Source: an uncultured Marinicella sp. (GTDB lineage: Bacteria; Pseudomonadota; Gammaproteobacteria; Xanthomonadales; Marinicellaceae). Taken from it: a stretch of 64,000 nt of DNA. Made by a program: the position numbers and the translations under genes. The notes under the pieces were generated by a model that was given only the letters and a program-made list of their open reading frames with translations, had not been told where the DNA came from and searched no databases. This document shows, in pieces, positions 9,287-62,932 of the stretch. Position 1 is the stretch's first letter, and each line of letters opens with the position of its first letter. The stretch is from assembly GCA_964631055.1 (NCBI GenBank), contig CAZVZJ010000005.1, positions 12,472 to 76,471 on the forward strand. Direction: 5' to 3'.

Positions 9287-9368
9287 ATAGCTCAGTGAAG
9301 CGCCAGAAAGCACTTGAAAAAGGGCTTTAGAAAGTTAACAATGATTGTTTTAATACTCGAGGTCAGAG

Positions 9369-10166
9369 ATGGAAGGATTATTCACCATAGAAAACTTGCT
9401 CACCCTGGGCATGTTGGTCATGTTACAAGCAGTGCTGGGTTTTGATAACCTGCTTTATATCATTATTGAGTCACAACGGGTTGAAGAATCACGGCAGTCC
9501 AAGTTAAGAAAAACAGGTATATGGTTGGCGGTATTATTCCGCTTGGTATTACTGTTCTTACTGTTAAAAATCCTGTCGTATTTTACTGAACCGCTGTTTT
9601 CCTTAAGTTGGGAAGGTGTGGTTGAGGGAACCTTTAATCTACGAGCGGTGGTGGTGTTGTTAGGTGGGGTGTTCATTATTTATACGGCCATGAAAGAAAT
9701 CGTGCATATGATGATGCTAGAAGAAAATATAGAACATGAGAAAAAACAAAAATCATCATTCACAAAGGCGCTGATCTTAATTGTTACCATGAATGTGGTT
9801 TTTTCGTTTGATTCCATCCTCAGTGCCATGGCATTAACTGATAACTACATCATTATGGCATCAGCCATCTTAATTGGTGCTGGTTTGATGGTTTGGTTGG
9901 CAGATACAGTTGCTACATTTTTACAAAAGAATCGCATGTATGAAGTGTTGGGGCTTTTCATATTGTTCATAGTAGGTGTGATGTTGTTGTCAGAAGCTGG
10001 CCACATAGCCCATTTAAAATTCTTTGGGCATGAAATCACGCAAATGAGTAAAGCCACTTTCTATTTCGTTATTGTCATTCTGGTGATCACCGAAATTGTT
10101 CAGTCCAGATATACAAAGAAACTCAATCAACTGAAAGCAAGAAGGTTGGAAAAAGAAACTAAATGA
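9369..10166 (+). CDS. TerC-family integral membrane protein
   Basis: It has a TerC-like pattern (LGFDNLLYIII...FSFDSILSAMALT) and multiple TM helices. Confidence 0.8.
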   Translation: MEGLFTIENLLTLGMLVMLQAVLGFDNLLYIIIESQRVEESRQSKLRKTGIWLAVLFRLVLLFLLLKILSYFTEPLFSLSWEGVVEGTFNLRAVVVLLGGVFIIYTAMKEIVHMMMLEENIEHEKKQKSSFTKALILIVTMNVVFSFDSILSAMALTDNYIIMASAILIGAGLMVWLADTVATFLQKNRMYEVLGLFILFIVGVMLLSEAGHIAHLKFFGHEITQMSKATFYFVIVILVITEIVQSRYTKKLNQLKARRLEKETK

Positions 10167-43813: not shown

Positions 43814-45400
43814 TCATAATGATTCAAAGCCATTTTTAAAAACCACATCAGAACCAAAGATCACATAGGAGCTACCAGCAATAGATACACCACCGGGGTT
43901 GGCAGCAAAGGCCCCCACAATGACATCATCGATGCCATCACCATTTACATCTCCAGCTGTACTGACCGAACTGCCAGATCGGTCACCTGTACTTACACCA
44001 TTAATCACCAAACCATTTAAACCATCCAAACCAGATAAACTCAACACACCAGGAAAACCTCTTTCACGGCCAAAAACCACATAGGTGCGGCCGACATCCG
44101 TTCCAACAATAGATTCTGCACGATAGGCCCCCATAATGATATCATCAATACCATCACCATTCACATCTCCTGCTGCCCCCACTGAAAACCCAAATTGATG
44201 GCCTGTACTCTCACCGTTGATCACAAAGCCATTCTGGCCATTTAAATCAGACAAATTCAATGGATTAGACAAACCACCGTCATTGCCAAAAACCACATAA
44301 GCCCTACCAGTTCCTGCCCCACCATTCCTGGCGCCCACCATGACATCATCGATGCCATCACCGTTGATATCACCTGCTCCAGTCACTGATATTCCAGATT
44401 GGTCGTCTGTATTCTCACCATTGATCACAAAGCCATTCTGGCCATTTAAATCAGACAAATTCAATGGATTAGACAAACCACCGTCATTGCCAAAAACCAC
44501 ATAAGCCCTACCAGTTCCTGCCCCACCATTCCTGGCGCCCACCATGACATCATCGATGCCATCACCGTTGATATCACCTGCTCCAGTCACTGATATTCCA
44601 GATTGGTCGTCTGTATTCTCACCATTGATCACAAAGCCATTCTGGCCATTTAAATCAGACAGACCCAATAGGTTAGAGAACGCACTTTCATTGCCAAACA
44701 CCACATAGGAACTACCAGCATTTGATAGACCATTAGGTTCTGCCAACAAAGCACCCACAACAACATCATCAATACCATCACCATTGACATCACCTGCTGC
44801 ACTGACCGAGCTGCCAGAACGATCACCTGCATTTACACCATTAATCACGAAGCCATTCTGGCCATTTAAATCAGTCAAATTCAATGGATTAGGAAAGCCA
44901 ATATCAGTGCCAAATACTACATATGAACTGCCAGCATCTAATTCATCATCTGGGCTTGAATGTCTGGCACCGATGATAATATCACCAATGCCATCTCCGT
45001 TGACATCTCCGGCGGCACTCACAGAGCGTCCAGATTCATCACCTGCATTCACCCCATTAATGACAAAACCATTGGAACCGTTTAAATCAGATAAACTCAA
45101 TACCTCAGAAAAATCTGTATCACTCCCAAAGACCACATAAGAACTGCCAGCATCATATTGGCCATTAATGTCGGCAGTAAATGCTCCCACAATCACATCA
45201 TCAATGCCATCCCCATTGACATCTCCAGCGGTACTCACTGACATTCCAGATCGATCACCTGGGCTAATGCCATTGATCACAAAACCATTTTGACCATTGA
45301 GGTCGCTAAGTTCGATAACAGCACCTACTTGCGCAACAGCTGAAGCTTGTGCCAGACCCAAAGCAAACGATACTGCCATCGTTATTTTGTTGTATTGCAT
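43814..45400 (-). CDS. secreted seven-blade FG-GAP (integrin-alpha-like) repeat protein
   Basis: It has the signal peptide MQYNKITMAVSFALGLAQASAVAQ. Seven units carry LNGxNGFxING...AGDVNGDGIDDxxxGA...SSYVVFG, and the C-terminal tail is VVFKNGFESL. Confidence 0.85.
   Translation of the reverse strand: MQYNKITMAVSFALGLAQASAVAQVGAVIELSDLNGQNGFVINGISPGDRSGMSVSTAGDVNGDGIDDVIVGAFTADINGQYDAGSSYVVFGSDTDFSEVLSLSDLNGSNGFVINGVNAGDESGRSVSAAGDVNGDGIGDIIIGARHSSPDDELDAGSSYVVFGTDIGFPNPLNLTDLNGQNGFVINGVNAGDRSGSSVSAAGDVNGDGIDDVVVGALLAEPNGLSNAGSSYVVFGNESAFSNLLGLSDLNGQNGFVINGENTDDQSGISVTGAGDINGDGIDDVMVGARNGGAGTGRAYVVFGNDGGLSNPLNLSDLNGQNGFVINGENTDDQSGISVTGAGDINGDGIDDVMVGARNGGAGTGRAYVVFGNDGGLSNPLNLSDLNGQNGFVINGESTGHQFGFSVGAAGDVNGDGIDDIIMGAYRAESIVGTDVGRTYVVFGRERGFPGVLSLSGLDGLNGLVINGVSTGDRSGSSVSTAGDVNGDGIDDVIVGAFAANPGGVSIAGSSYVIFGSDVVFKNGFESL
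44217..44660. repeat. perfect tandem duplication, 204-bp period (~2.2 copies) inside the FG-GAP gene
   Basis: By direct comparison, 44217-44456 is identical base-for-base to 44421-44660. It encodes the twice-repeated 68-aa blade ...NGENTDDQSGISVTGAGDINGDGIDDVMVGARNGGAGTGRAYVVFGNDGGLSNPLNLSDLNGQNGFVI. Confidence 0.9.
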
Positions 45401-45625
45401 TTTTTAAGTTTAAACCTCTTACTGATAATCACTATGACATGTCTATAAATGTTAACAGAACCGTTGATGCATTTGTAGCTGCTCACTTAATGTCAACTGT
45501 AAAAAGAAAGCCTCCCATCTTTTCAAACTGCGTTCAGGTCAGCCTCATATAGCCTACCCAAAAAATCAACGGGAAGCTTATATCAGCCAGAATCTATCAA
45601 CGGTTTCAGGCATTTTTTATCCATT

Positions 45626-47005
45626 TTAGCGGACTATTTTTTGTAACAAACCCAAAACAGTTCGCCCATGGCTTTGAAAAATATCTTCACCAGCAAAAAC
45701 AGGCGTATGCCATTGAGGTGTTATACCTTGTCCTTCCCAAGAAACACCAGATGTATCTAGATAAGTTTCATTAGAAAAACCCACTTCCCAACCATTGGGT
45801 AATGTCTTTTCCAATATATCGGAAAAAGCACCCCGAGTGTAATCTCCAACATGAGTTACTTGCGGTAAGGATCTCATGGCAAGAACAAAAGTTTCAGCTG
45901 CACTGACTGTGTGATCACTGCTTAATAAATACACCGGCTTATCATAAAAAACTCCATTGGGTTCAACCACAACGGACTGCGGTGATAACCCAGAGCCATG
46001 GGCGAATTTTGAATACACTGGCGTTTTAGATTGGGTGAAAAAGCCAGCCATTGCCAAGCCTATCTCATCATGGCCTCCGCTGTTTGTTGTGACATCAACT
46101 ATCAATGATTGGGTATTTTTAAGTACTTTCATGATTTTGTTCATTTCTGCTTTAAACACACTTAAGTCATCTTGAATGGTTGCTGATTCTGTAAAATTGA
46201 TCATTCGCAACAAGTTGATGTAACCGACCTCACCAATAACTCCCCAAATGATCCTGTCATTTGCAGCATATTGGTATTGCCCTTTGAGTATGGTTTGTTC
46301 AATATTATTCTTATGCGCTTCAAACCATGCACGCCTGAATGTGCTTCCACTTTGGATTTCATTTTGAGCTGAAAAAGCTTGATCCAATGCTGGGCGAAGA
46401 GTCTTCGATCTTCCTGTTGAATAACGTTTAATTTCACCATTAACCTCAGCGATGAAAGATGTATGAGCATCGTTAATTCCAGACAGTAAGCTGGTCATTA
46501 TTTCGTATGCATCGGTATCTGAAAGTTCATTTTTAAGTAATGGCAAAACTTGTTTAGAGCGTTTGTCCCAATCAACACCATAAAGGTCGAAGTATGCATA
46601 ATGTTCTTTCATGATTTCGATGAAATAACGAATACTTTCAGCGTGATTTTTCACGGGTACTTGTTTACAAGTATCAGGCAATTTTTCAATTCTCTTAAAG
46701 TAATAATCAGTGATTCCAGATTGGATTTTCGCTTGTATAGTCTGCTTATTAACCTGTTTAATATCTGTTAAAGTGGCAGAAAGTTCTTTGGAGCTAAAGC
46801 CTTTATCAAAACAGTGGCTGTTACTTATATCAAATAATTTCTTTTTCTTACCAGTAACCTGTAAGATATACCCATAACCTTCTGATGCCCAAACCCCATC
46901 AAGTGAAGATTGATTTTTAGTTGAGTTTGGCATAGAGTTACTTGGTCCAAATTGACACCCACCAGTAAGTATAATGACTGAAAGAACTGCAATTATTTTC
47001 AACAT
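45626..47005 (-). CDS. S41-family peptidase lipoprotein
   Basis: It has a lipobox (ILTGGC), a DVTTNSGGH motif and a catalytic-Ser region SDHTVSAAETF, typical of tail-specific/S41 peptidases. Confidence 0.8.
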   Translation of the reverse strand: MLKIIAVLSVIILTGGCQFGPSNSMPNSTKNQSSLDGVWASEGYGYILQVTGKKKKLFDISNSHCFDKGFSSKELSATLTDIKQVNKQTIQAKIQSGITDYYFKRIEKLPDTCKQVPVKNHAESIRYFIEIMKEHYAYFDLYGVDWDKRSKQVLPLLKNELSDTDAYEIMTSLLSGINDAHTSFIAEVNGEIKRYSTGRSKTLRPALDQAFSAQNEIQSGSTFRRAWFEAHKNNIEQTILKGQYQYAANDRIIWGVIGEVGYINLLRMINFTESATIQDDLSVFKAEMNKIMKVLKNTQSLIVDVTTNSGGHDEIGLAMAGFFTQSKTPVYSKFAHGSGLSPQSVVVEPNGVFYDKPVYLLSSDHTVSAAETFVLAMRSLPQVTHVGDYTRGAFSDILEKTLPNGWEVGFSNETYLDTSGVSWEGQGITPQWHTPVFAGEDIFQSHGRTVLGLLQKIVR

Positions 47006-47099
47006 GACTTTTTCCTTTGATTTAAAAAGCCACCAGCTTAGTTTGGCTAGCTAAACAAGTCGTCCTAACCCTTTTGTTAAGACTTATTTATTGACAAAT

Positions 47100-48250
47100 A
47101 TGCCTACTATTGAATCTTTATTGCTTGCCATAACTTATTTTACTTTAGGTATTAATGCATTTGTTTTGGTGCATTGTTTAGTAGATGGTTTGGTCAAAAC
47201 CTCACTGCATAAAAAGTACTTGGCTTTGTTTTTTTTCGCCTCACTGGTTAATTACCTCGATGATGTGTTTTGGCGCACCGATGGATGGCAGTGGTTTCCA
47301 GCAATTACCAATGCATATATCCCTTTTGCTTTTATTATGCCAGCGGCTCTTTATCTATATATTTTGACTCTGGTTAAACATGAGAGAAAAGTGAATCTAT
47401 TCAGTATTCACTGGCTGGGTGTTGTTTTTGCATTGATTTGTTGTCTGCCTTATTACTTGCTTGACCCCACCACAAAATTAACCCGTTTATCAGCGACACC
47501 TGGCAGTCTTTCAGCCGAAGGTTTAGCCACATGGGGACCGTTATTCCTTTCGGTCTGATATACATCTTATTTAGTTTAAGATTACTCAAAGAAAATCAGA
47601 TAAGAGTAAAATCCTTTTTTTCCAACATCGAAGATAAAAACTTATCTTGGGTTCGATGGGTCATATTAATTTTGATGTTGGCTTGGTTGGTTGCATCTAT
47701 TGAATTGGTGTTACCCAATCGAATATCTGAGAACAGTTTTTGGTCAATTGTTATTGCATTGTTTGAGTTGGCTTGGCTTTGGGTTTTTGCTCATTTTTCA
47801 ATGCAACAAGATGCGTTAAAGGTTCCTTTGATTGATACAGTAACAGAGGGTTCTCAAAAACCAGTCACAAGTTCAGAAACAAAGAAATACCAGCGGTCAC
47901 CATTAACCAATAACGAAGTAAGTCACATCAAAGTTGCTTTATCAAATACCATAGACCAACAACTACACAGACAGCCAGAACTGTCGTTACAAACCTTGTC
48001 CGAACATTTAAATATTCCGATTCTTAAAATATCACAGGTGTTGAATGTACATATGGAAACTGGCTTCTACGATTACATCAACAAAAACCGCATTAATGAT
48101 GCTTGCAGACAACTTAAAAACTCCAACCTAAATATCATCGATATCGCTTATCTGGTTGGCTTCAACTCAAAATCCACTTTTAACAGTGCGTTCAAGAAGC
48201 ACGCTCTAATGACACCCAGCCAGTTTAAGAAAGCCAATCAAATACCGTAA
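47100..48250 (+). pseudogene. membrane-anchored AraC-family regulator, apparently frameshifted
   Basis: Two overlapping ORFs (47091-47558 in frame 0, 47531-48250 in frame 2) together give multi-TM N-terminal helices plus a C-terminal AraC HTH (...IIDIAYLVGFNSKSTFNSAFKK). Frame 2 is open from 47465, so the shift lies within 47465-47558. Confidence 0.6.
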
Positions 48251-50582: not shown

Positions 50583-50957
50583 CTAATCCGCCGCTTTAAT
50601 ACACTTCATCAGTTGGTAGTTGCGCCAATGAGCCATCACCATCAACACCCCACCAACCACAAACATCGCCGACTCAATCAGGATGTCAACTTTGTCTTCC
50701 AGCAAAGTACCACCAATCAAAAACCCAAAACCCAAAACAAACAACCCAACCACACCTTTATCATGATGTCGGCGCCAGCCTCTTGAAAAGGACCACACCG
50801 CAATCACCGCAATGGCACTCAACCAAATCCAACCATGACCAAAATGCATCCAATTAGGCACCACCGCCGTCACACTCAATAAAATCGGCAACATGGCACA
50901 TTGAATGGCACAGAGGCCAGACATAAATATACCTATTTTATCTGCTGTTGATTTCAT
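50583..50957 (-). CDS. MerC-domain-like small membrane protein
   Basis: It has four TM helices and an N-terminal motif GLCAIQCAMLPILLS resembling the MerC CxxxC-containing first helix. Confidence 0.65.
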   Translation of the reverse strand: MKSTADKIGIFMSGLCAIQCAMLPILLSVTAVVPNWMHFGHGWIWLSAIAVIAVWSFSRGWRRHHDKGVVGLFVLGFGFLIGGTLLEDKVDILIESAMFVVGGVLMVMAHWRNYQLMKCIKAAD

Positions 50958-51191
50958 GGATGTGTGAAGCTTAATTGCTCAAAAATTTGATGATAACAGA
51001 TATGGGTTTTTTATGGGCAGACACAAGTCTTATTAAAGTTTCTTTTTTATTCGAAGCAAATTTATTCGAAGGCTTCATATCCTTTTTATGAGTTTTTCAG
51101 AAAAATTTCATATAAATTTCAGGTTTATTCAACAGGTTTTCAGTATGCTCTTGCAGGTAATTTTTAAATTTATTTTCATGGAGCATTGTTA

Positions 51192-52793
51192 ATGCACATA
51201 CAACGCAAAAAAATCGTCTTGGCTGTTTCTTTGGCCTTGAGTTTATCTCAACAGTCAGCTTTCGCACAATTTGAACCATCCTTTGAGCTCTCTGGTATCA
51301 ATGGCCAAAATGGCGTGACCATCAATGGTATCGGGGCCGGTGATAGTTCAGGCACTTCTGTAAGTACAGTTGGTGATGTCAATGGCGATGGTATCGATGA
51401 TTTAATCATTGGCGCTCTTACTGCAGATTCTGGAAGTAACATGTATTCTGGCAGCAGTTACGTGGTATTTGGTACAGTGAGCGGACTACCGAACCCATTC
51501 AACTTAGAAGACATCAATGGTTTGAATGGTTTTACCATAAACGGTGCTTCCTCCTCTGACTTATCAGGCCGCTCTGTTAGTAACGCTGGTGATGTCAACG
51601 GTGATGGTACTGATGATTTGATTATTGGTGCAAGCTCTGCCAGTCCCAACGGAAACTCTGGAGCCGGAGCCAGTTATTTGGTTTTTGGTAGTGACACGGG
51701 GCTTCCTAACCCATTGAACTTGGACAGTCTCAATGGAGTCAATGGCATCATTATTAATGGCATCGCAGCCAATGACAACTCAGGCACTTCTGTCAGTTCA
51801 GCCGGCGACATCAATGACGATGGGTTTGATGATGTGATCATCGGGGCGCCTTTCGCAGACCCAAGCAATAATTTGGTCGCTGGAAGTAGTTATGTGGTTT
51901 TCGGTGCCGCCAGTGGCATACCCAACCCTTTTAATCTTGATGAGATCAATGGGCTTAACGGGTTTACCATCAATGGAGCAGCAGCTGGTGACCAATCTGG
52001 TATTTCAGTCAGTGGGGCAGGAGACATCAACGGCGATGGTATTGATGATGTGATCATCGGCGCCAATCTCTCCAATTCCAGTGCCGGTAGCAGCTATGTG
52101 GTGTTTGGGACCACAAGTGGTTTCCCAAATCCTTTGAAATTGGAGGACATCAATGGCATCAATGGATTCAGTATTAATGGTGTGACTAACGGTGATCAAT
52201 CGGGTACTTCTGTCAGTGCGGCTGGCGATGTCAATGGCGATGGCACCGATGATTTAATAATTGGTGCTTATTTAGCAGATTCAAGTGGCGGTAATGACAT
52301 GGGCAGTTCCTATGTGGTATTCGGGACAGACAGTGGGCTGCCCAATCCATTTGACTTAGATGACATCAATGGCCTCAATGGCTTCATCATCAATGGTGAA
52401 TCAGCAGGCGACTACTCAGGCCTTTCTGTCCATTCAGCTGGAGATATGAACGGTGACGGTATCGATGATTTAATTATTGGCGCTCCACTGGCTGGCCTAA
52501 ATAATAATGATTACTCCGGTAGCAGTTATGTGATATTTGGTTCCACAAGTCAGTTTTCCAACCCTTTCAATTTAATTGGTTTGAATGGTTCCAATGGCTT
52601 TGCCATCAATGGAGTGGCTGAAAACGACCTATCAGGTGTTTCAGTCAGTGAAGCAGGCGACTTCAATTCAGACGGTATCGGTGATGTCATCATAGGTGCT
52701 CGGGCAGCAACTCCAGGCGGTAACGCTGGCGCTGGTAGCAGCTATGTGGTGTTTGGTAAAGAGAAGCCAATTTTTAAAGATGGGTTTGACTAA
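51192..52793 (+). CDS. secreted seven-blade FG-GAP repeat protein
   Basis: It has the signal peptide MHIQRKKIVLAVSLALSLSQQSAFA, seven FG-GAP units each ending in (S/A)SY(V/L)VFG, and the C-terminal tail PIFKDGFD. Confidence 0.85.
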   Translation: MHIQRKKIVLAVSLALSLSQQSAFAQFEPSFELSGINGQNGVTINGIGAGDSSGTSVSTVGDVNGDGIDDLIIGALTADSGSNMYSGSSYVVFGTVSGLPNPFNLEDINGLNGFTINGASSSDLSGRSVSNAGDVNGDGTDDLIIGASSASPNGNSGAGASYLVFGSDTGLPNPLNLDSLNGVNGIIINGIAANDNSGTSVSSAGDINDDGFDDVIIGAPFADPSNNLVAGSSYVVFGAASGIPNPFNLDEINGLNGFTINGAAAGDQSGISVSGAGDINGDGIDDVIIGANLSNSSAGSSYVVFGTTSGFPNPLKLEDINGINGFSINGVTNGDQSGTSVSAAGDVNGDGTDDLIIGAYLADSSGGNDMGSSYVVFGTDSGLPNPFDLDDINGLNGFIINGESAGDYSGLSVHSAGDMNGDGIDDLIIGAPLAGLNNNDYSGSSYVIFGSTSQFSNPFNLIGLNGSNGFAINGVAENDLSGVSVSEAGDFNSDGIGDVIIGARAATPGGNAGAGSSYVVFGKEKPIFKDGFD

Positions 52794-52801
52794 AGCGGGA
52801 G

Positions 52802-52888
52802 TTAACTGAGAAAAATCGGCAGCATGGCACATTGAATGGCACACAGGCCAGACATGAAGATACCTATTTTATCGGTGGTTGAATTCAT
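52802..52888 (-). pseudogene. truncated duplicate of the 5' end of the merC-like gene
   Basis: It encodes MNSTTDKIGIFMSGLCAIQCAMLPIFLS then a stop, against MKSTADKIGIFMSGLCAIQCAMLPILLS... in the full gene. The DNA at 52812-52961 aligns to 50881-51030 at a constant offset of 1931 bp. Confidence 0.8.
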
Positions 52889-53062
52889 TGAGGTGCGTAG
52901 TTTGGATACAAAAAAATGGCATAATAACAGATATGGGATTTTTCTGTGTAGGTACAAGCCAATAATCCACTTCTTTTGTCTCTTTCTCACCAGAACACCA
53001 AAGGTTTAATGGCTTTTAGCCTATAATCTAAACAGATACCGAACAAAGGGGCCACACAAAAC

Positions 53063-55321
53063 ATGCAACGCAAGAAAATCGTACTTTCCATCACACTGGC
53101 ATTGGGCTTGGCCCAATGCCCAGCCCATGCACAAATTGATCCCATCCAGCTAGAAGGATTAGATGGCAACAATGGCTTTCGCCTTGATGGTGCATCAGCT
53201 GGAGACAACACTGGTTTCTCAGTGAATACTGCCGGTGATGTCAATGGCGATGGTTTTGATGATTTGATAATTGGCGCTTATGGTGCGGACCCGAATGGCA
53301 ATGATTCTGGCAGCAGTTATGTGGTTTTCGGTTCTGATGCAGGCTTTTCTAACACATTGAACTTATCAAGTCTTGATGGATCCAACGGCTTCCGCCTTGA
53401 TGGCGCAACAGCTGGAGACCTCTCTGGCTTTGCAGTCAGCACAGCAGGTGATGTTAATGGCGATGGCATCGATGACGTCATCATCGGGGCTAGTGGAGCG
53501 GATCCGAATGGCATTGGAACGGACCCAAATGGCAATAGTTCTGGCAGTAGCTATGTGGTGTTTGGTTCTGGTGCAGGTTTTACTAACCCATTGAACCTAT
53601 CAAGTCTTGATGGATCCAACGGCTACCGTCTTGATGGCGCAGCAGCTGGAGACCTCTCAGGCTTTACTGTGAGCTCAGCTGGTGATGTCAACGGTGATGG
53701 CATAGATGATCTGATCATCGGCGCCTATCATGCTGATCCAAATGGGACTGATCGTGCTGGCAGCAGTTATGTGATGTTTGGTAGGAGCTCTCCTTTTACC
53801 GCCACACAGAACCTGAGCACGCTGGATGGCAGCAACGGCTTCCGCCTGGATGGCGCAGCAGCTGGAGACCTCTCAGGCTTTGCTGTCAGCTCAGCTGGTG
53901 ATGTCAATGGCGATGGCATCGATGACATCATTATCGGGGCTCGTGCAGCAGACCCGAATGGCAGTTTTTCTGGTAGTAGCTACGTGGTGTTTGGTAAAAG
54001 TACTCCTTTTACCGCCATACAGAATCTGAGCACGCTGGATGGCAGCAACGGCTTTCGCCTTGATGGCGCAGCAGCCTTAGACAACTCCGGCCGCGCAGTG
54101 AGTGCAGCTGGTGATGTCAATAGCGATGGCATCGATGACGTCATCATCGCGGCTCCTTTTGCGAACCCAAATGGCAATGATTCTGGCAGTAGCTATGTGG
54201 TGTTTGGCACCAGCGCAGGGTTTAATGCTACGATGAACCTGAGTGCACTGGATGGAACCAACGGCTTCCGCCTCGATGGCGAAGCGGCGAATGATTTTTC
54301 CGGCCGCGAAGTGAGTACAGCAGGTGATGTTAATGGCGATGGCATTGACGATCTACTGATTGGGGCTTCTAGAGCTGATCCTAACGGTGCTTCGTCCGGC
54401 AGTAGCTACGTGGTGTTTGGCACCAGCGCAGGGTTTAATGCTACGATGAACCTGAGTGCACTGGATGGAACCAACGGCTTCCGCCTCGATGGCGAAGCGG
54501 CGTATGATTTTTCCGGCCGCAGCGTGAGCGCTGCTGGTGATGTCAATGGTGACGGCATTGATGACCTGCTGATTGGGGCTTTTGAAGCTGATCCTAACGG
54601 TACTTCGTCCGGCAGTAGCTACCTGGTGTTTGGTCGAGTCACCGGAGTTCCATTGGTGGATTTCGATGTGAACCTGGTTGATTTTGGTGATACCCTAGTC
54701 GGTACCAACAGTGATACAAACACCATTACCTTAAGTAATCCCGGTACCGGTCTGGTCACCATTGATGGCATTAACCTGGCAGATCCCGCATTCGCCATCA
54801 CTGGTGGCGACTGTGGCACGCCACCATTCTTCATCGGCGTCAACGAAACCTGCACACTGGACCTGCAGTTCACACCGCAGATGGTTGGTACCACGGCGAG
54901 TAAGACCATCATTGAAAGTTCTTCATTCACCAGTCCAGACTCGTTTACCCTGATTGGCAACGGCGTGCTGCCACCAATGGTCTCTTTACAACCCGATCCA
55001 TTGGTCTTTATGGACACCCCAGTTGGAAACAGCAACATCGAAACACTTACTGTCGAAAACATCGGCCAAAATAGCACCTTGGAACCCGGCGCCGTTACCA
55101 TCCAAGGCACCGATGCGGTCGATTTCAGCATAACCATGAATAACTGCATGGGCGCACAACTAGAACTCAACCAGTCTTGTGACATCGAGGTGAGTTTTAC
55201 CCCAAGCGCGGCTGGAACCCGAGAGGCCATGCTACAGCTGGAATCCAATGCCCCAAGCAGCCCCGACTTTATCGAACTGATCGGCAGCAGCGATGTGATT
55301 TTTAAATCAGGGTTTGAGTGA
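53063..55321 (+). CDS. secreted seven-blade FG-GAP repeat protein with two C-terminal choice-of-anchor-D/HYDIN-like Ig modules
   Basis: It has the signal peptide MQRKKIVLSITLALGLAQCPAHA and seven FG-GAP units. Two ~100-aa modules follow (VDFGDTLVGTNSD..ITLSNPGTG...CTLDLQFTP; LVFMDTPVGNSN..LTVENIGQ...CDIEVSFTP), and the tail is VIFKSGFE. Confidence 0.85.
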   Translation: MQRKKIVLSITLALGLAQCPAHAQIDPIQLEGLDGNNGFRLDGASAGDNTGFSVNTAGDVNGDGFDDLIIGAYGADPNGNDSGSSYVVFGSDAGFSNTLNLSSLDGSNGFRLDGATAGDLSGFAVSTAGDVNGDGIDDVIIGASGADPNGIGTDPNGNSSGSSYVVFGSGAGFTNPLNLSSLDGSNGYRLDGAAAGDLSGFTVSSAGDVNGDGIDDLIIGAYHADPNGTDRAGSSYVMFGRSSPFTATQNLSTLDGSNGFRLDGAAAGDLSGFAVSSAGDVNGDGIDDIIIGARAADPNGSFSGSSYVVFGKSTPFTAIQNLSTLDGSNGFRLDGAAALDNSGRAVSAAGDVNSDGIDDVIIAAPFANPNGNDSGSSYVVFGTSAGFNATMNLSALDGTNGFRLDGEAANDFSGREVSTAGDVNGDGIDDLLIGASRADPNGASSGSSYVVFGTSAGFNATMNLSALDGTNGFRLDGEAAYDFSGRSVSAAGDVNGDGIDDLLIGAFEADPNGTSSGSSYLVFGRVTGVPLVDFDVNLVDFGDTLVGTNSDTNTITLSNPGTGLVTIDGINLADPAFAITGGDCGTPPFFIGVNETCTLDLQFTPQMVGTTASKTIIESSSFTSPDSFTLIGNGVLPPMVSLQPDPLVFMDTPVGNSNIETLTVENIGQNSTLEPGAVTIQGTDAVDFSITMNNCMGAQLELNQSCDIEVSFTPSAAGTREAMLQLESNAPSSPDFIELIGSSDVIFKSGFE
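54187..54626. repeat. near-identical tandem duplication, 213-bp period, inside the FG-GAP gene
   Basis: 54187-54306 and 54400-54519 differ at only 2 positions by eye, and the remainder of each unit is diverged. They encode the repeated ...SSYVVFGTSAGFNATMNLSALDGTNGFRLDGEAA(N/Y)DFSGR... Confidence 0.85.
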
Positions 55322-55483
55322 GATATACATCTGACTTTAATTCACTGGTGTGGTGAAAACTGAACTTCAAGGTTTAACCAAAAACACACGTACGCTGTGT
55401 AAAATACCACTTCTGTCTCTCTAGTGAATTGAGCCCTGTAAGCGGCATTAAACTGGAGTGGTTTTAAACTCAAGGGTATAAAA

Positions 55484-57076
55484 ATGCAACGAAAAAAGAT
55501 CACTTTAGCAGTTTCAATGGCCTTGTGCCTGTCACACATGCACAGTGCCAATTCTCAATTTGAACCCACCATTGAACTGGCCGACCTTAATGGCTTAAAT
55601 GGCATCAGATTCAATGGCGTTGCTGAATTAGATAACAGCGGCGTTTCAGTTTCATCAGCCGGTGACATCAATGGTGATGGTATCGATGATGTGATCATAG
55701 GTGCCAATGATGCAGACCCGAATGGGACTGATCGTGCTGGCAGTACTTACGTGGTGTTTGGTACCACAACAACTTTACCCAACCCATTTAATTTATCAAA
55801 TATAAATGGCAGCAATGGTTTCACCATTAACGGGGTTGCTGATGTAGACTTGTCAGGTTTTTCAGTCGATGGGGCTGGAGACATCAATGGCGATGGCTTT
55901 GATGACTTAATCATTGGTGCGCTGTATGCCGATGTGAATGGTGTTACTGATGCGGGTAGTGCCTATGTGGTGTTTGGTTGAAATACTGACTTACCCAATC
56001 CGTTGAATTTATCCACCATAGATGGTACCAATGGTTTCGCGCTTAAAGGCATTATTATGGATGACCGCACAGGTCGAGCAGTCAGTGCAGCTGGAGATAT
56101 CAATGGTGATGGTATTGATGACCTGGTAATTTCTGCAGATCGTGCCAGCCCAGGTGGTATCAACAGTGCTGGCAGCACCTATGTGGTGTTTGGCTCGAAC
56201 AGTGACTTACCCAACCCTTTTAATGTATCCAGCCTGGACGGCACCAATGGCTTCATCATTAATGGCTCATCATCTTTTGACCAAACGGGCACTTCTCTCA
56301 GTACTGCCGGTGACATCAATGGCGATGGTATTGATGACCTCATCATCGGTGCGGATCGAGCTGGAATCTCAGGTTCCAGTTATGTGGTGTTCGGCTCAAA
56401 CACTGGATTTACAAATCCGCTTAACTTATCTGATCTTAATGGCAGCAACGGCTTTCTGATCAATGGTCAGTCATCTGGTGATTTTTTGGGCTTTTCAGTC
56501 AGTGCAGCTGAAGATGTGAATGATGACGGTATAGATGACCTAATTATGGGTGCTCGAGGTGCTGATCCGGGTGGTAACAGTTTTGCTGGCAGCAGCTACG
56601 TCATTTATGGGTCTGATTCTGGTATTCCTCACCCTTTTGATTTATCTACACTTAATGGTACCAATGGATTTGCTCTCAACGGTATAGCAGAAAATGATTA
56701 CTCTGGCATTTCAGTCAGTGCAACTGGCGACATCAATGGTGATGGTATGGATGATCTGATCATCGGAGCCAGCGGTGCAGACCCTAATGGCTCAAATAGT
56801 GCCGGCAGTGCTTATGTGGTATTTGGTTCTGACGCGGGCATTTCACATCCTTTTGATTTATCGGCCCTCAATGGAGTTAACGGTTTTACTGTCAATGGTG
56901 TTTCGAATTCAGACACCACCGGTTATTCAGTCAGCGAAGCGGGTGATTTCAACGGTGATGGTTTGAACGACATATTGATAGGTGCTCGCAGGGCAGACCC
57001 GGATGATAATATCAATGCCGGCAGCAGTTATGTGGTTTTCGGCAATGATGTGATTTTTAGGGATGGATTTGAGTAG
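55484..57076 (+). pseudogene. seven-blade FG-GAP repeat paralog interrupted by an in-frame TGA at 55979-55981
   Basis: ORFs 55484-55981 and 56003-57076 share one frame, with 7 sense codons between the stop and the track's TTG 'start'. The read-through sequence is ...SAYVVFG*NTDLPNPLNLSTIDG, mid-repeat. Only the 5' part has a signal peptide (MQRKKITLAVSMALCLSHMHSANS), and the tail is VIFRDGFE. Confidence 0.75.
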
Positions 57077-57189
57077 TTGAGGCTTGAGCTAAGGAAAGAC
57101 TATAAAATAATAGGGTATATGTTTATAATAGTTAGAACATCCGACATCATCCACGTACCCAACAATAAAACCAATCAATAGCACGCAAT

Positions 57190-58227
57190 ATGACCCAAAA
57201 CAAACTCGAATTCAATGGCTCCAGACAGTTCTGTAGCTGGCTGATTGAACACAACATCAGCTTGAGCTTTTCGACTTATCAAGCGGGTAAGTTGTTTTTT
57301 ATTGGTATGCAAGATGAAGTTAAGATGTCGGTTTTTGAGCGGACTTTTGCACGCTGTATGGGCATTGGGCTGGACCCCAAAACCATGAGTTTATGGGTGG
57401 CAAATCTTTATCAACTGTGGCGTTTTGAAAATGCGCTCAAACCCGGACAATCACACCAAGGATTTGATCGTGTTTACGTTCCACAAGTCGGTTACACCAC
57501 GGGTGATGTGGATGCGCATGATGTGGCCATTGATGATGAAGGGGTGATTTTTGTGAACACCTTGTTCAGTTGTTTGGCCAGACCCAGTGATCAATACAGC
57601 TTTGAACCGATCTGGCAACCGCCACATATTTCTAAACTGGCCGCTGAAGACCGCTGTCACCTCAATGGCCTAGCGACCAAAGATGGTCAGGCCGCTTATG
57701 TCACCTGTGTCAGCCAAACCGATGTGAACGAAGGCTGGCGAGAGCACCGACAAAAAGGCGGTGTGGTGATTGATGTGCAAAAAAATGATGTAGTGGCTGA
57801 TGGCTTATCCATGCCACACTCACCCAGGTGGTACAACGGAAAATTGTGGGTGTTAAATTCAGGTGAAGGGGAGTTCGGCTACATTGACCTGACCAGCGGT
57901 CGATTTGAGCCAGTGGCTTTTTGTCCAGGTTATCTGCGTGGCATGAGCTTTCATGGCGATTATGCGGTGGTAGGCCTTTCAAAACCCAGAGGCAATAAAA
58001 CCTTCGAAGGCCTGAAACTGCATGAAAAACTTGAGGATAAAAAAGTACAGCCACGCTGTGCTTTACAAGTAATTAATTTAACCACCGGCGATGTCGTTCA
58101 TGAGTTAAGGATCGAAGGAGTGGTTGAAGAGCTATATGATGTGTGTGTTCTACCTGGTACGAGGAGACCTATGGCCATCGGCTTTATGAATGAAGAGATC
58201 AGGCGTGTACTTTCATTACCGTTTTAA
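57190..58227 (+). CDS. conserved hypothetical protein, TIGR03032-like
   Basis: The N-terminal F..WL.....SL.FSTYQAGKLFFIG pattern and ~345-aa length match my recollection of the uncharacterised TIGR03032 family. No signal peptide is present. The family assignment is from memory and is not verified. Confidence 0.55.
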   Translation: MTQNKLEFNGSRQFCSWLIEHNISLSFSTYQAGKLFFIGMQDEVKMSVFERTFARCMGIGLDPKTMSLWVANLYQLWRFENALKPGQSHQGFDRVYVPQVGYTTGDVDAHDVAIDDEGVIFVNTLFSCLARPSDQYSFEPIWQPPHISKLAAEDRCHLNGLATKDGQAAYVTCVSQTDVNEGWREHRQKGGVVIDVQKNDVVADGLSMPHSPRWYNGKLWVLNSGEGEFGYIDLTSGRFEPVAFCPGYLRGMSFHGDYAVVGLSKPRGNKTFEGLKLHEKLEDKKVQPRCALQVINLTTGDVVHELRIEGVVEELYDVCVLPGTRRPMAIGFMNEEIRRVLSLPF

Positions 58228-59988: not shown

Positions 59989-60335
59989 TTACTCGTTACC
60001 AAGCTCTGCTTGGTAATGCATAGGAATGATCCTCAACCCAACGAAAATAGATTCCTGCTCTCGCTAGAGCTCGGCTGGAATGACGATTTTTTAGCTTTTC
60101 TAGATTTCCTTACTCGTTTACTCGTTTCCAAGCTATGCATTGGTAATGCATAGTGGTTTTAATTAGATTCCAAAACCCAAATCTTCCAAAGGTTTGATCT
60201 GATTGTGCATATGTTGCGTTGAAAAAGCACCATGTTTTTACAATGGATTCCTGATCTCGCCTACCGGCTCGTCTGGAATGACGATGGGTTTTTAGTTTTA
60301 TTCTCGTTCCCAAGCTCCAGCTTGGTAACGCATAG
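59989..60335. repeat. cluster of REP-like palindromic units (three ~34-nt CTCGTT(C/A)CCAAGC-NNN-GCTTGGTAATGCATAG units plus two ...ATTCCTG...GGAATGACG units)
   Basis: The CCAAGC-type units lie at 59989-60023, 60121-60153 and 60301-60335. The 'GGAATGACG' hairpin-type units lie at 60051-60086 and 60247-60283. Confidence 0.85.
60117..60291 (+). repeat. ~175-bp direct repeat, copy A
   Basis: It aligns end to end with 62567-62742 at roughly 90% identity by eye. The match includes an identical 38-nt run (TGATCTGATTGTGCATATGTTGCGTTGAA...) and an identical GCACCATGTTTTTACAATGGATTCCTGATCTCGCCTACCGGCTCGTCTGGAATGACGATGGGTTT. Confidence 0.9.
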
Positions 60336-60589: not shown

Positions 60590-62032
60590 TCATTGTTCAA
60601 TTACACTAACTGTTGATTTAACCTTTTGTGTTCCACCATACTGTGCCAATAAGCCCTGCCCTGCAGCTGCATTGGTGAACTGTTGAAATGTAACCCCTAT
60701 AACTGGAAGCCCCATAATTTCCACGTTGGTATTGGTATTTGCATCAGTGCCACTCAACGATCTTGTTGCTAAAAAATCAATCCTATGAAAACCGCTTTCT
60801 GTAACTGCGGTGGTGGGTGAGGTGAATAATTGGGTATTGCTAGACCCTGTAATACTTCCATCGGAACCATCTTGTCCAGGTAACACAAGTTGATATGCAA
60901 AGACACTGCCACAGATGGCTGGGGTGGGAAAGCCCACTGGAATTGGACCAGCTGCCACATCTGAATTCTCAATTTGAGCTTCTCGATCGAATATTGAAAC
61001 GTCTACTTCTGAACCGCCGTAAGTTGAATCTGAACAAAGACCTACATCAATGTCATCACCATAAGGAGGCGAAGAAACCAGCGTTTCACTGTCAAAATAA
61101 AATCTACGAGTAGGCTGTACAAAAACAGTTTCGCTTTTTCCAACCACAACTGTATCTAATGCATAGGCTGCTATCAACTCATCGGCCATTAAAACTGCAC
61201 TGACCGCATCAATACCTGAATCAAGATCCAATTCATATACTTTCTCTCGAGTCACTACAGTGGCTTTAGGTTCAGCAGCATCTAAAGATAAATTAGTATC
61301 ACCTGGACTTGTGTGAGCAATGGTACCTTCAGCAAAAAAGCCATCTAAAGCAACCACGGGCACAGAGAAATTAATACCCTCAGCAACATTAATGATATCT
61401 GCATTCACCATCAGTCCGCCAGTAACCTCAGTCACATCTGATTCAACATCACCACCGGAAGGTTCGTCCCAAATTCCATCCAATGTCCAGGCCTCAATAA
61501 TTCTCCCACAATCCGCTGGTACTCCTGCATTAAATTGACTAACAAAACCAGCAACCTCACCTGTTAATTCACCCATTTCAATCACTTCAATAAAACCTTC
61601 ACGGGCCCTGCTTAAATCATTAGGTCCATCTATAAATTCAAAAGGCAAAAACTCTTGGCCAGATTTTAATAAAAACGGGGCGCATGAAGTATCTGAAGTA
61701 ACATGGCGGACTGAATTTTGGCCAGCATAACCTGAAACAGTTGACTGAGTTTCAACCAAAGCAAATGACCAGGTATCAAAAGAATCCAGATAGACATTAT
61801 ATGACAACACTGCATATCCATTTAACCCTTCTCTGAAGTTAATTTTTACTGCTTTTGCGGTGTTTCGGGTGTTTGTAACTGTCACCAATGTATTTAAATT
61901 GTTATTAACCGTATAGTATGGGACTAGTGAGACATCACTTATTCCTTGAGGATTAATATGGACTGCGGACGCATTAAAAGTGTAACAAGTAAATGCAGTG
62001 CCAATGAGTTTTTTTATTAACATTTTAATCAT
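60590..62032 (-). CDS. secreted hypothetical protein (no recognised domain)
   Basis: The ATG at 62032 has an AAGGA SD 8 nt upstream. It has the signal peptide MIKMLIKKLIGTAFTCYTFNASA. The mature N-terminus LVPYYTVNNNLNTLVTVTNT...AVKINFREG resembles an uncharacterised proteobacterial family that I cannot name. Confidence 0.75.
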   Translation of the reverse strand: MIKMLIKKLIGTAFTCYTFNASAVHINPQGISDVSLVPYYTVNNNLNTLVTVTNTRNTAKAVKINFREGLNGYAVLSYNVYLDSFDTWSFALVETQSTVSGYAGQNSVRHVTSDTSCAPFLLKSGQEFLPFEFIDGPNDLSRAREGFIEVIEMGELTGEVAGFVSQFNAGVPADCGRIIEAWTLDGIWDEPSGGDVESDVTEVTGGLMVNADIINVAEGINFSVPVVALDGFFAEGTIAHTSPGDTNLSLDAAEPKATVVTREKVYELDLDSGIDAVSAVLMADELIAAYALDTVVVGKSETVFVQPTRRFYFDSETLVSSPPYGDDIDVGLCSDSTYGGSEVDVSIFDREAQIENSDVAAGPIPVGFPTPAICGSVFAYQLVLPGQDGSDGSITGSSNTQLFTSPTTAVTESGFHRIDFLATRSLSGTDANTNTNVEIMGLPVIGVTFQQFTNAAAGQGLLAQYGGTQKVKSTVSVIEQ

Positions 62033-62566
62033 TTTATTTCCTTGTTTTTTGATAGTACTTTTGTTTTTCAGTGCCAAATTATATGAAAAACATAGTTAGA
62101 TCAAAGTTATTTTTATATGTAAAAAAAGTTAAACAAATCACTGCTGTTTAACTGAATAAAATACAGTTTTCAGTGAGATTTTATTTAGCTATACCCTATA
62201 TTCAAATTACTGAAAGTGCTATTGAAATCAAACAACTTTCTATTGAAAGCCATCAGTATAGGCGTCAATACAATGGAGTTAAACCGATTGTCTGAAATCT
62301 TAAAAAAACTGTCGTAATTTTAATTTTTACGATAATAAACAGTCTCTGCTACGCTTGTTTTTAATTTTATATACCTCAGTTTAAGCGTAAGGCTAACAAG
62401 GCTAAACATCTTGGTCATGGGCTATTAGAGGAAAGGTCTAAAGTTTTCGAGTAATGCCAGTGTTCGGCCAACTCAACGCAACCTCGTTTAGCTGGGTTTT
62501 GATGGATACAATTAATTTTCTGTCACAACATACCTTCATTCGAAATCAATTGGGGGATGCTCTCCT

Positions 62567-62742
62567 TATTCTCGTTCCCAAGCTGTGCTTGGTAATACAT
62601 AGAGGTTTTAATCAGGCTCCAAAACCCAACTCTTCCAAAGACTTGATCTGATTGTGCATATGTTGCGTTGAATAAAAGCACCATGTTTTTACAATGGATT
62701 CCTGATCTCGCCTACCGGCTCGTCTGGAATGACGATGGGTTT
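62567..62742 (+). repeat. ~175-bp direct repeat, copy B
   Basis: See copy A at 60117-60291. The two copies bracket the orphan secreted-protein gene. Confidence 0.9.
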
Positions 62743-62932
62743 ATTGCCTTTTAAGGAGATTGCTTCAGTCGTTCCTCTTTCGCAATGACAGGGATTTTCA
62801 AACTTGAAACAAAGGTGTTAATGAAGGTTTATTCTCGTTCCCAAGTTCTTGCTTGGTAATGCATAAGTTTAAGCCTGACTGATTCAAGCCTAATTTTTCC
62901 TCGTTACCAAGATCCAACTTGGTTATGCCTAT
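62569..62932. repeat. cluster of REP-like palindromic units (three CCAAG-type, one GGAATGACG-type, one ...TCGCAATGAC-type)
   Basis: The CCAAG-type units lie at 62569-62602, 62832-62866 and 62897-62932. The other two units lie at 62697-62733 and 62758-62790 (GATTGCTTCAGTCGTTCCTCTTTCGCAATGACA). Confidence 0.85.

Follow-up and report, generated by a model that had tools for sequence, protein, structure and literature searches.

Free-standing seven-bladed propellers of the integrin type were described in bacteria by Chouhan et al. in 2011 (PMC3192720), with a Ca site in each blade and, in some proteins, tandems of 14 blades; their function was left open. In the cyanobacterium Leptolyngbya, the extracellular-vesicle and outer-membrane fractions contain an FG-GAP repeat protein as one of their major components (PMC9003413). 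The DNA considered in this study (the window) is a stretch of 64,000 nucleotides from an uncultured Marinicella sp., contig CAZVZJ010000005.1, and carries four genes for propellers of this kind, three of them (g1, g2 and g3) in a tandem array and the fourth (g4) 5.8 kb from g1. A gene of the TIGR03032/DUF4915 family follows g3 on the same strand after 113 bp. All five open reading frames (ORFs), the 113-bp gap and a fourth copy about 6 kb away had been reported in a preliminary description of the window, and all were recovered on checking (Table 1). The main result presented here is that propeller and TIGR03032 genes form a conserved two-gene module across at least four phyla, a conclusion strongly supported by their neighbourhoods in other genomes.

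The propellers of the window resemble those of Chouhan et al. (PMC3192720) in having seven FG-GAP/Cage repeats, a Dx[DN]xDG loop in each blade, loops of regular length and no transmembrane helix. They are a short, Sec-exported form with an FxxGFE tail, whereas the proteins described in 2011 and most other relatives are long and of the RTX type, associated with type I secretion systems (T1SS). Nor did the earlier work provide a function, a gene context or a partner. The suggestion that free-standing seven-blade propellers constitute an undescribed system does not survive this comparison: besides the 2011 description, a homology search, saturated at its ceiling of 8,000 candidates, gave at least 7,965 matches, labelled 'integrin alpha', 'FG-GAP repeat protein' or 'beta strand repeat-containing protein' in the source records. 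The four genes add new members to a known family, one that is abundant and functionally uncharacterised.

The head of the metazoan integrin alpha chain is a second point of reference, since the predicted fold superposes on it and g2 likewise has immunoglobulin (Ig)-like modules after the propeller. The window propellers are nonetheless not integrins, as they are without a transmembrane helix, legs (thigh and calf) and a beta-subunit partner. They also lack an I-domain and a cytoplasmic tail of the GFFKR type, they have seven Ca loops, not three or four, and the Ig modules of g2 are of the choice-of-anchor-D type. They differ as well from the RTX/T1SS FG-GAP exoproteins, to which many homologs and most of the TIGR03032-linked partners belong: no match to PF00353, the family of GGxGxD nonapeptide repeats, was found in the window propellers, which instead carry Sec-type signal peptides.

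An exported protein served by a cytoplasmic modifier is familiar from HMW1 and the GT41 N-glycosyltransferase HMW1C, from RTX toxins and the acyltransferase HlyC, and from RaxX and RaxST with RaxPQ (tyrosine sulfation before export by T1SS). The present locus is like these in that a secreted repeat protein is encoded beside a cytoplasmic protein without a signal peptide, and many TIGR03032 loci add genes for TPR-GT41 proteins or for synthesis of 3'-phosphoadenosine 5'-phosphosulfate (PAPS), or both. Unlike HMW1C, HlyC and RaxST, however, TIGR03032 lies outside those enzyme families, and the window holds only the propeller-TIGR03032 pair; with no GT41 homolog in its 64 kb, it does not contain an adhesin-GT41 pair of the HMW1/HMW1C type. 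I class the system in the window with exported repeat proteins that have a cytoplasmic factor dedicated to them.

Table 1. Features of the propeller locus, in positions of the window.
Feature	Position	Strand	Description
g4	43814-45400	-	Signal peptide, seven blades, tail VFKNGFESL; downstream of S41 peptidase gene
g4 tail	43817-43843	-	C-terminal tail motif
g4 perfect blade repeat	44217-44661	-	Blades 4 and 5, protein-identical
Duplicated segment, original copy	50874-51027		merC 5' end and intergenic region upstream of g1
g1	51192-52793	+	Sec signal peptide and seven-blade FG-GAP propeller, 533 aa, tail PIFKDGFD
g1 tail	52770-52790	+	C-terminal tail motif
Duplication scar	52805-52958		Between g1 and g2; copy of merC 5' end and g1 upstream region
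g2	53063-55321	+	Signal peptide, propeller (53063-54634), two choice-of-anchor-D Ig-like modules (~54650-55288), tail VIFKSGFE
g2 blades 6 and 7	54209-54634	+	Near-identical neighbouring blades (repeat analysis, Tandem Repeats Finder)
g2 tail	55298-55318	+	C-terminal tail motif
g3	55484-57076	+	Seven-blade paralog with a single in-frame TGA; probable recent pseudogene
g3 TGA stop	55979-55981	+	Codon 166; context AYVVFG*NTDLPN
g3 tail	57053-57073	+	C-terminal tail motif
TIGR03032/DUF4915 gene	57190-58227	+	No signal peptide; predicted beta-propeller of ~6 blades

Propeller and TIGR03032 genes as neighbours

The association was assessed from both sides. On the TIGR03032 side, all ORFs of 80 species-representative loci (loci are denoted by L and a number) were scanned with a hidden Markov model made from the blades of the window. 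An FG-GAP propeller ORF lies within 800 bp of TIGR03032 on the same strand in 32 of the 80 loci, downstream in 21 cases and upstream in 12 (L021 being counted on both sides). Each of the 43 FG-GAP ORFs found at these loci shares its strand with TIGR03032, and only five are more than 3 kb away from it, in 720 kb of flank. The linked hosts belong to the Cyanobacteriota, Planctomycetota, Verrucomicrobiota and alpha-, beta- and gamma-Pseudomonadota, and include Nostoc, Tolypothrix, Leptothoe, Pirellula, Planctomycetaceae, Chthoniobacteraceae, Nitrosomonas, Sulfuritalea, Zavarzinia, Woeseiaceae and Ectothiorhodospiraceae; their partner proteins have 7, 14 or 35 blades. The reverse test made use of 80 metagenome loci picked by FG-GAP similarity. 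TIGR03032 was found 15 to 939 bp from the propeller in 15 of them, and in 10 of the 32 with a length of 10 kb or more.

The arrangement is often more elaborate than a pair. In L004, two stand-alone propellers stand directly upstream of DUF4915 with a third 4 kb off, in L175 two tandem 537-aa propellers are followed by a DUF4915 gene whose start overlaps the preceding stop, and in L097 DUF4915 is followed by three tandem propellers. In Anabaena azotica, DUF4915 stands immediately upstream of FG-GAP proteins of 1,562 aa and 1,324 aa. Counting L005, L061, L071 and L099 as well, tandem propeller arrays beside TIGR03032 occur at so many loci that they represent a recurrent pattern, not one peculiar to the window. 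The link is absent at L007/L008, L002, L173 and L174. Examination of gene neighbourhoods had been proposed in the preliminary description, which singled out the TIGR03032 gene, and it bears out the importance of that gene as a conserved partner of propellers across phyla. The cross-phylum association was not found in a literature search and is new information.

The TIGR03032 protein of the window scores 482.4 bits against its family model (cutoff 251.5), covering positions 1-334 of 335, and 472.9 bits against DUF4915 (PF16261; cutoff 35, E 6e-142). The family is entered as a 'hypothetical equivalog' in NCBIfam and as PF16261 in Pfam, with no assigned function, and no mention of TIGR03032, DUF4915 or PF16261 was found in a literature search. 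Members from Marinicella, cyanobacteria, planctomycetes and verrucomicrobia are 56-67% identical to one another and have no signal peptide in any aligned member. Some 100 columns of the alignment are invariant, including C128, E153-D154-R155-C156-H157, H210, R213, R250, C290 and H304. The AlphaFold2 model is almost all-beta and has the form of a propeller of about six blades (predicted local distance difference test, pLDDT, 86.9; predicted template modelling score, pTM, 0.88), and its matches in Foldseek are generic six-blade propellers only (YWTD, NHL, Kelch designs). A likeness to arylsulfate sulfotransferase (rank 7 in Foldseek, template modelling score by query, TMq, 0.53; root-mean-square deviation 12) is too weak to count. 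No relative in PDB was found by sequence or profile search. Long open frames upstream of TIGR03032 in L019 and L073 were considered as fusion domains, are without a Pfam domain and are probably not real. Tolypothrix sp. FACHB-123 (L066) has, directly upstream of its full-length TIGR03032 gene, a truncated DUF4915 gene of 173 aa (9332-9850) corresponding to the N-terminal part only.

Export, accessory genes and the possible action of TIGR03032

Outside the gammaproteobacteria, most TIGR03032-linked propellers have no signal peptide and carry RTX repeats and T1SS-like C-termini. Since the propellers here are of the Sec type and those partners of the T1SS type, the cytoplasm is the only compartment common to TIGR03032 and all its partners. 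The planctomycete and verrucomicrobial partners, which also lack a classical signal peptide, begin with a basic segment followed by a motif, (E/Q)xLE(D/P/G/A)R..(LL)(S/A), seen in L020, L036, L047, L053, L061, L062 and L078.

The reading I favour, to which I assign a probability of about one half, is that the propeller and TIGR03032 genes are a conserved module in which TIGR03032 acts on the propeller precursor before its export, probably by modifying it. The products of g1, g2 and g4 (and of g3 before its nonsense mutation) are Sec-exported propellers with Ca-type loops, putatively ligand-binding or adhesive exoproteins. TIGR03032 would meet them in the cytoplasm, while still unfolded and ahead of export, which would be by Sec here and by type I secretion in most other phyla. 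Its likeliest action would be a covalent modification or maturation step; service as a dedicated holding or export factor seems less likely. Both the directness of this action and its kind are what I infer by analogy with the modifier systems named above.

What else is encoded at these loci was determined by clustering the neighbours of the 80 loci and scanning them against families. TPR-GT41 glycosyltransferase genes are present in 14 of the 80 TIGR03032 loci and 5 of the 80 FG-GAP loci, and in the betaproteobacteria the order is FG-GAP, (GT4), TPR-GT41, TIGR03032, adenylylsulfate (APS) kinase. APS kinase or CysD/CysNC genes occur in 7 of the 80 TIGR03032 loci, often directly adjoining TIGR03032. 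Neighbours of one or another of these types were seen in the betaproteobacterial loci L041, L049, L051, L063 and L081 and in L011, L022, L066, L073 and L079, and a TPR-sulfotransferase adjoins the cluster of L004. In several loci APS kinase, CysD or CysNC directly adjoins TIGR03032, and a scan of the neighbouring ORFs there gave no canonical sulfotransferase; for this reason, TIGR03032 could be a new PAPS-dependent protein sulfotransferase. The broader proposition, that TIGR03032 is a pan-bacterial cytoplasmic enzyme with a six-bladed propeller fold that covalently modifies FG-GAP exoproteins before export, possibly with PAPS, is a tentative one, and I consider it unlikely as it stands. Small stand-alone TPR proteins (115-156 aa) also adjoin TIGR03032, at L175 (4924-5271) and at L007/L008 (8475-8945); the one in L175 has a sub-threshold similarity to chaperones of type III secretion systems of the SycD/LcrH type (44 bits, cutoff 105).

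The same accessory genes can be interpreted differently. GT41, GT4, APS kinase and CysD/CysNC might, together with TIGR03032, make or edit a glycan or small molecule, perhaps sulfated, that the secreted propeller binds outside the cell, organising a matrix in the manner of a lectin. Propellers of the FG-GAP type do occur in carbohydrate-active proteins, and g2 has a weak match to RGL11_C of PL11. However, the minimal conserved unit consists of the propeller and TIGR03032, with no genes for a polymerase, flippase or exporter, and TPR-GT41 enzymes (OGT, those of the HMW1C type) typically act on proteins, in keeping with a weak similarity to NGTferase seen here. I regard a matrix or ligand pathway as a rather unlikely account of these loci.

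Several facts weigh against the action of TIGR03032 on a propeller precursor. No gene for GT41 (by tblastn), APS kinase or sulfotransferase was found in the window, and GT41-linked propellers show no clear surplus of NxS/T sequons (observed/expected 1.20 vs 1.09). TIGR03032 has no relative of known function detectable by sequence, profile or Foldseek search. In the window its immediate upstream neighbour, the propeller gene g3, is probably a pseudogene. Some 60% of TIGR03032 loci are without an FG-GAP gene next to them, and the partnership is not obligatory in cis, since stand-alone propellers bearing the tail described below occur in L002, L173 and L174 with no TIGR03032 nearby. Finally, loci of related species are not phylogenetically independent, so that fewer independent events lie behind the linkage than the raw counts would suggest.

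The loci where one gene occurs without the other, and the great size and generic annotation of the propeller family, would also be accommodated if the window held ordinary FG-GAP adhesin paralogs and TIGR03032 were co-transcribed with them for unrelated reasons, for example as a housekeeping enzyme in exoprotein operons. This explanation is improbable in view of same-strand adjacency in four phyla and in both gene orders, recovered in the reverse test. Against the background given by the distal flanks (the five FG-GAP ORFs per 720 kb), the linkage goes far beyond what chance or hitch-hiking would produce.

The propellers, their tail and the history of the array

The architecture reported for the four paralogs, with a Sec signal peptide, seven FG-GAP blades and a Ca-type loop in each blade, was confirmed, though some details need revision. 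Pfam FG-GAP (PF01839) matches seven stretches each in g1 (E 1e-50), g2 and g4, and two and five in the halves of g3, with E values from 1e-38 to 1e-54; whole proteins score 127-178 bits (cutoff 22.1) and the two-blade N-terminal fragment of g3 scores 54. Splitting the proteins by regular expression at the YVVFG strands gives seven blades per gene, as claimed, but with lengths of 67-78 aa, not 68-71. The strand is likewise found seven times per gene, though g4 has some that deviate slightly from the pattern given (RAYVVFG, RTYVVFG), and signal peptides are evident by eye in all four proteins, although the MQRKKI start said to be common to them is not shared by g4, which begins MQYNKIT. Loops of the form D(V/I/M/F)N(G/D/S)DGxxD were located in all 28 blades, a few with single-residue deviations (e.g., ED in blade 5 of g3). 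To judge by their sequence, these Dx[DN]xDGxxD loops are of a putative Ca-binding type.

Scans of Pfam and NCBIfam upheld the assignments to FG-GAP, choice-of-anchor D and TIGR03032 and the confinement of Ig-like modules to g2. The choice_anch_D model of NCBIfam (NF012200) matches g2 in two stretches (94.5 bits, cutoff 45), and Pfam adds HYDIN_VesB_CFA65-like_Ig and ASH to its seven FG-GAP matches. The choice-of-anchor-D module is ubiquitous, being common to 22,580 representative clusters in an exhaustive representative search.

The closed seven-blade propeller that structure prediction had been expected to give was obtained for g1. The AlphaFold2 model, calculated from an alignment of 20 stand-alone homologs, has 28 strands in seven groups of four, with an N-terminal strand preceding blade 1 (pLDDT 85.5, pTM 0.88). 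Foldseek aligns it to the propellers of integrins alphaV, alpha5 and alphaIIb over ~530 columns (E ~1e-20; template modelling score by target, TMt, 0.7-0.76), and by sequence the sole PDB relatives of the propellers are integrin alpha chains (matches reach E ~1e-9). A closed seven-bladed propeller of the integrin-alpha type is therefore supported for g1 as a prediction.

The propeller accounts for nearly the whole of the protein in g1, g3 and g4, which end 8-12 residues past blade 7, and g2 ends after its two choice-of-anchor-D modules. Inspection of the translations and of the blade split revealed no hydrophobic C-terminal segment in any of the four. All close instead with a short tail, (I/V)F(K/R)xGF(E/D), 0-2 residues before the stop codon. 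Within the window, the motif is found at the ends of the four paralogs and of one 8-codon frame and at no other ORF end. Elsewhere it closes 19 out of 24 stand-alone homologs, which come from many taxa, as well as homologs in which a DUF11 domain is inserted before it and two giant choice-of-anchor-D repeat proteins, P0241 and P0354 (P and a number denote proteins); RTX-type relatives are without it. The latter two proteins were the only informative matches when the Ig modules and tail of g2 were used in the exhaustive representative search, a word-index search having given none. In g2, the tail comes after the Ig modules and not after the propeller, and in the model of g1 it is disordered (pLDDT below 50). 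It is not a signal of the exosortase or rhombosortase type, because no transmembrane helix follows it, and it lacks the combination of motif, transmembrane helix and basic cluster found in PEP-CTERM, GlyGly-CTERM and LPXTG-type sorting signals. In its behaviour the tail resembles a self-contained linear motif at the C-terminus of proteins exported by Sec. It may serve in sorting, retention or recognition, perhaps as a tag of a new kind by which Lysobacterales-like bacteria sort or retain such proteins.

The preliminary description saw in the array a recently diversifying multigene family, and an account of that kind, in which rapid change of a surface or receptor-binding protein provides antigenic or specificity variation, does find some encouragement at the locus. 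The four signs of turnover on which it was based are all present. The first is the perfect repeat of blades in g4, with an exact run of 241 nt at period 204 (Tandem Repeats Finder also gives a period of 204). The second is the near-perfect repeat in g2, where blades 6 and 7 are 90.6% identical in DNA and 90% in protein, with an exact run of 93 nt at period 213 (91% matches in Tandem Repeats Finder). The third is the duplication scar, which includes the first ~15 codons of merC and aligns to the original with 79% identity, and is thus better conserved than the paralogous coding DNA that flanks it (65-68%). The fourth is the nonsense codon of g3, which occupies the position of the Ser found after YVVFG in other blades and is also present in the independent, 99.5%-identical contig L001. 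To these may be added a difference in g4 itself: L001 (2827-4188) is without exactly one 204-nt unit and so has six blades, not seven, which could be either a real polymorphism in blade number or the collapse, in a short-read assembly, of a perfect repeat of 445 nt.

Recency is another matter, and apart from the two homogenisations of blades within genes and the nonsense mutation of g3, which look recent, it was not borne out. The paralogs are only 54-60% identical to one another in protein, and therefore this is not a fast-turnover locus; each is as near to homologs of other organisms as to its own neighbours. The ortholog of g1, P0004, is 78-79% identical to it, and the nearest proteins to g2 and g4 are P0102 and the Marinicella protein P0085, both at 65%. 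The strain represented by L001 has the same gene layout. In related species the propeller gene is single, as had been raised as a possibility: L091 and L092 have, at the same chromosomal site, merC, one FG-GAP gene (532 aa), TIGR03032 and genes for a methyltransferase and a HAD protein, while L002 has the same series but lacks TIGR03032, so that the linkage holds in the former and not in the latter. In addition, scans gave no promoter signals, no RNA elements and no elements that could switch genes by inversion or through repeats. The propellers could have a role as variable surface or receptor-binding proteins, but as an explanation of the locus rapid diversification is decidedly improbable.

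The organism of the window is Marinicella-like (Lysobacterales) by its TIGR03032 and FG-GAP relatives, which source records label Marinicella sp. The comparison with relatives indicates that the ancestral order in Marinicella is merC, one FG-GAP gene, TIGR03032, methyltransferase and HAD. Since the relatives have a single copy, the lineage of the window expanded one propeller gene to an array. In those relatives merC immediately precedes the lone FG-GAP gene, and the merC scar between g1 and g2 therefore records one tandem duplication. Duplication of the propeller gene into a tandem array left the fragment of merC behind, and a fourth copy lies 6 kb off. The history of g2 may be more complicated. 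Its GC content of 52% (50-57% at third codon positions) is set against 45-46% in g1, g3 and g4, and its closest homolog, P0102, is of a different ('FRLDG') subtype, yet the scar upstream of it implies that a tandem duplication took place locally. A foreign copy may have replaced g2 or altered it by gene conversion, and horizontal transfer is suggested solely by its GC content and the type of its closest homolog.

The fourth copy, g4, belongs to a block (43814-48250) that also contains a peptidase gene of the S41 C-terminal-processing type (45626-47005, minus strand), a small ORF and an AraC regulator (47531-48250), and lies between groES and an ABC-2 transporter. In the relatives L002 and L091, g4, the peptidase gene and the AraC gene are absent from that site. 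A general role for the S41 peptidase as a partner of g4 that processes the tail was rejected, because no S41 homolog is near FG-GAP genes at any other locus. Further downstream, a direct repeat of ~170 nt (69 nt exact, the remainder ~90%) at 60112-60334 and 62571-62931 flanks an ORF of 495 aa (60590-62077, minus strand) that has no match in Pfam or NCBIfam; also noted was a 41-nt element that occurs four times and contains a palindrome, CCAAGCT..AGCTTGG, similar in appearance to repetitive extragenic palindromic elements. Scans for promoters and terminators and with Rfam gave nothing above background, and a tRNA scan found no tRNA genes.

The tight same-strand pairing, and the RTX/T1SS export of many partners, might also bring to mind a bacteriocin-like toxin (the propeller) and its immunity protein (TIGR03032), but this is hardly credible, given that TIGR03032 is 56-67% identical across phyla, unlike fast-evolving immunity proteins, that it is cytoplasmic whereas Sec-exported propellers never fold in the cytoplasm, that propellers exist without it (L002, L173, L174), and that neither toxin domains nor, for TIGR03032 or g1, the anti-phage defence models of PADLOC gave a match.

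Bacterial propellers of the integrin type are among the most abundant uncharacterised exoproteins of cyanobacteria, planctomycetes and many proteobacteria. Their coupling with TIGR03032/DUF4915 across phyla provides both families with a concrete and testable hypothesis, maturation before export. If TIGR03032 should turn out to be a new protein-modifying enzyme, then it would represent a new enzyme fold and class for the maturation of bacterial exoproteins.

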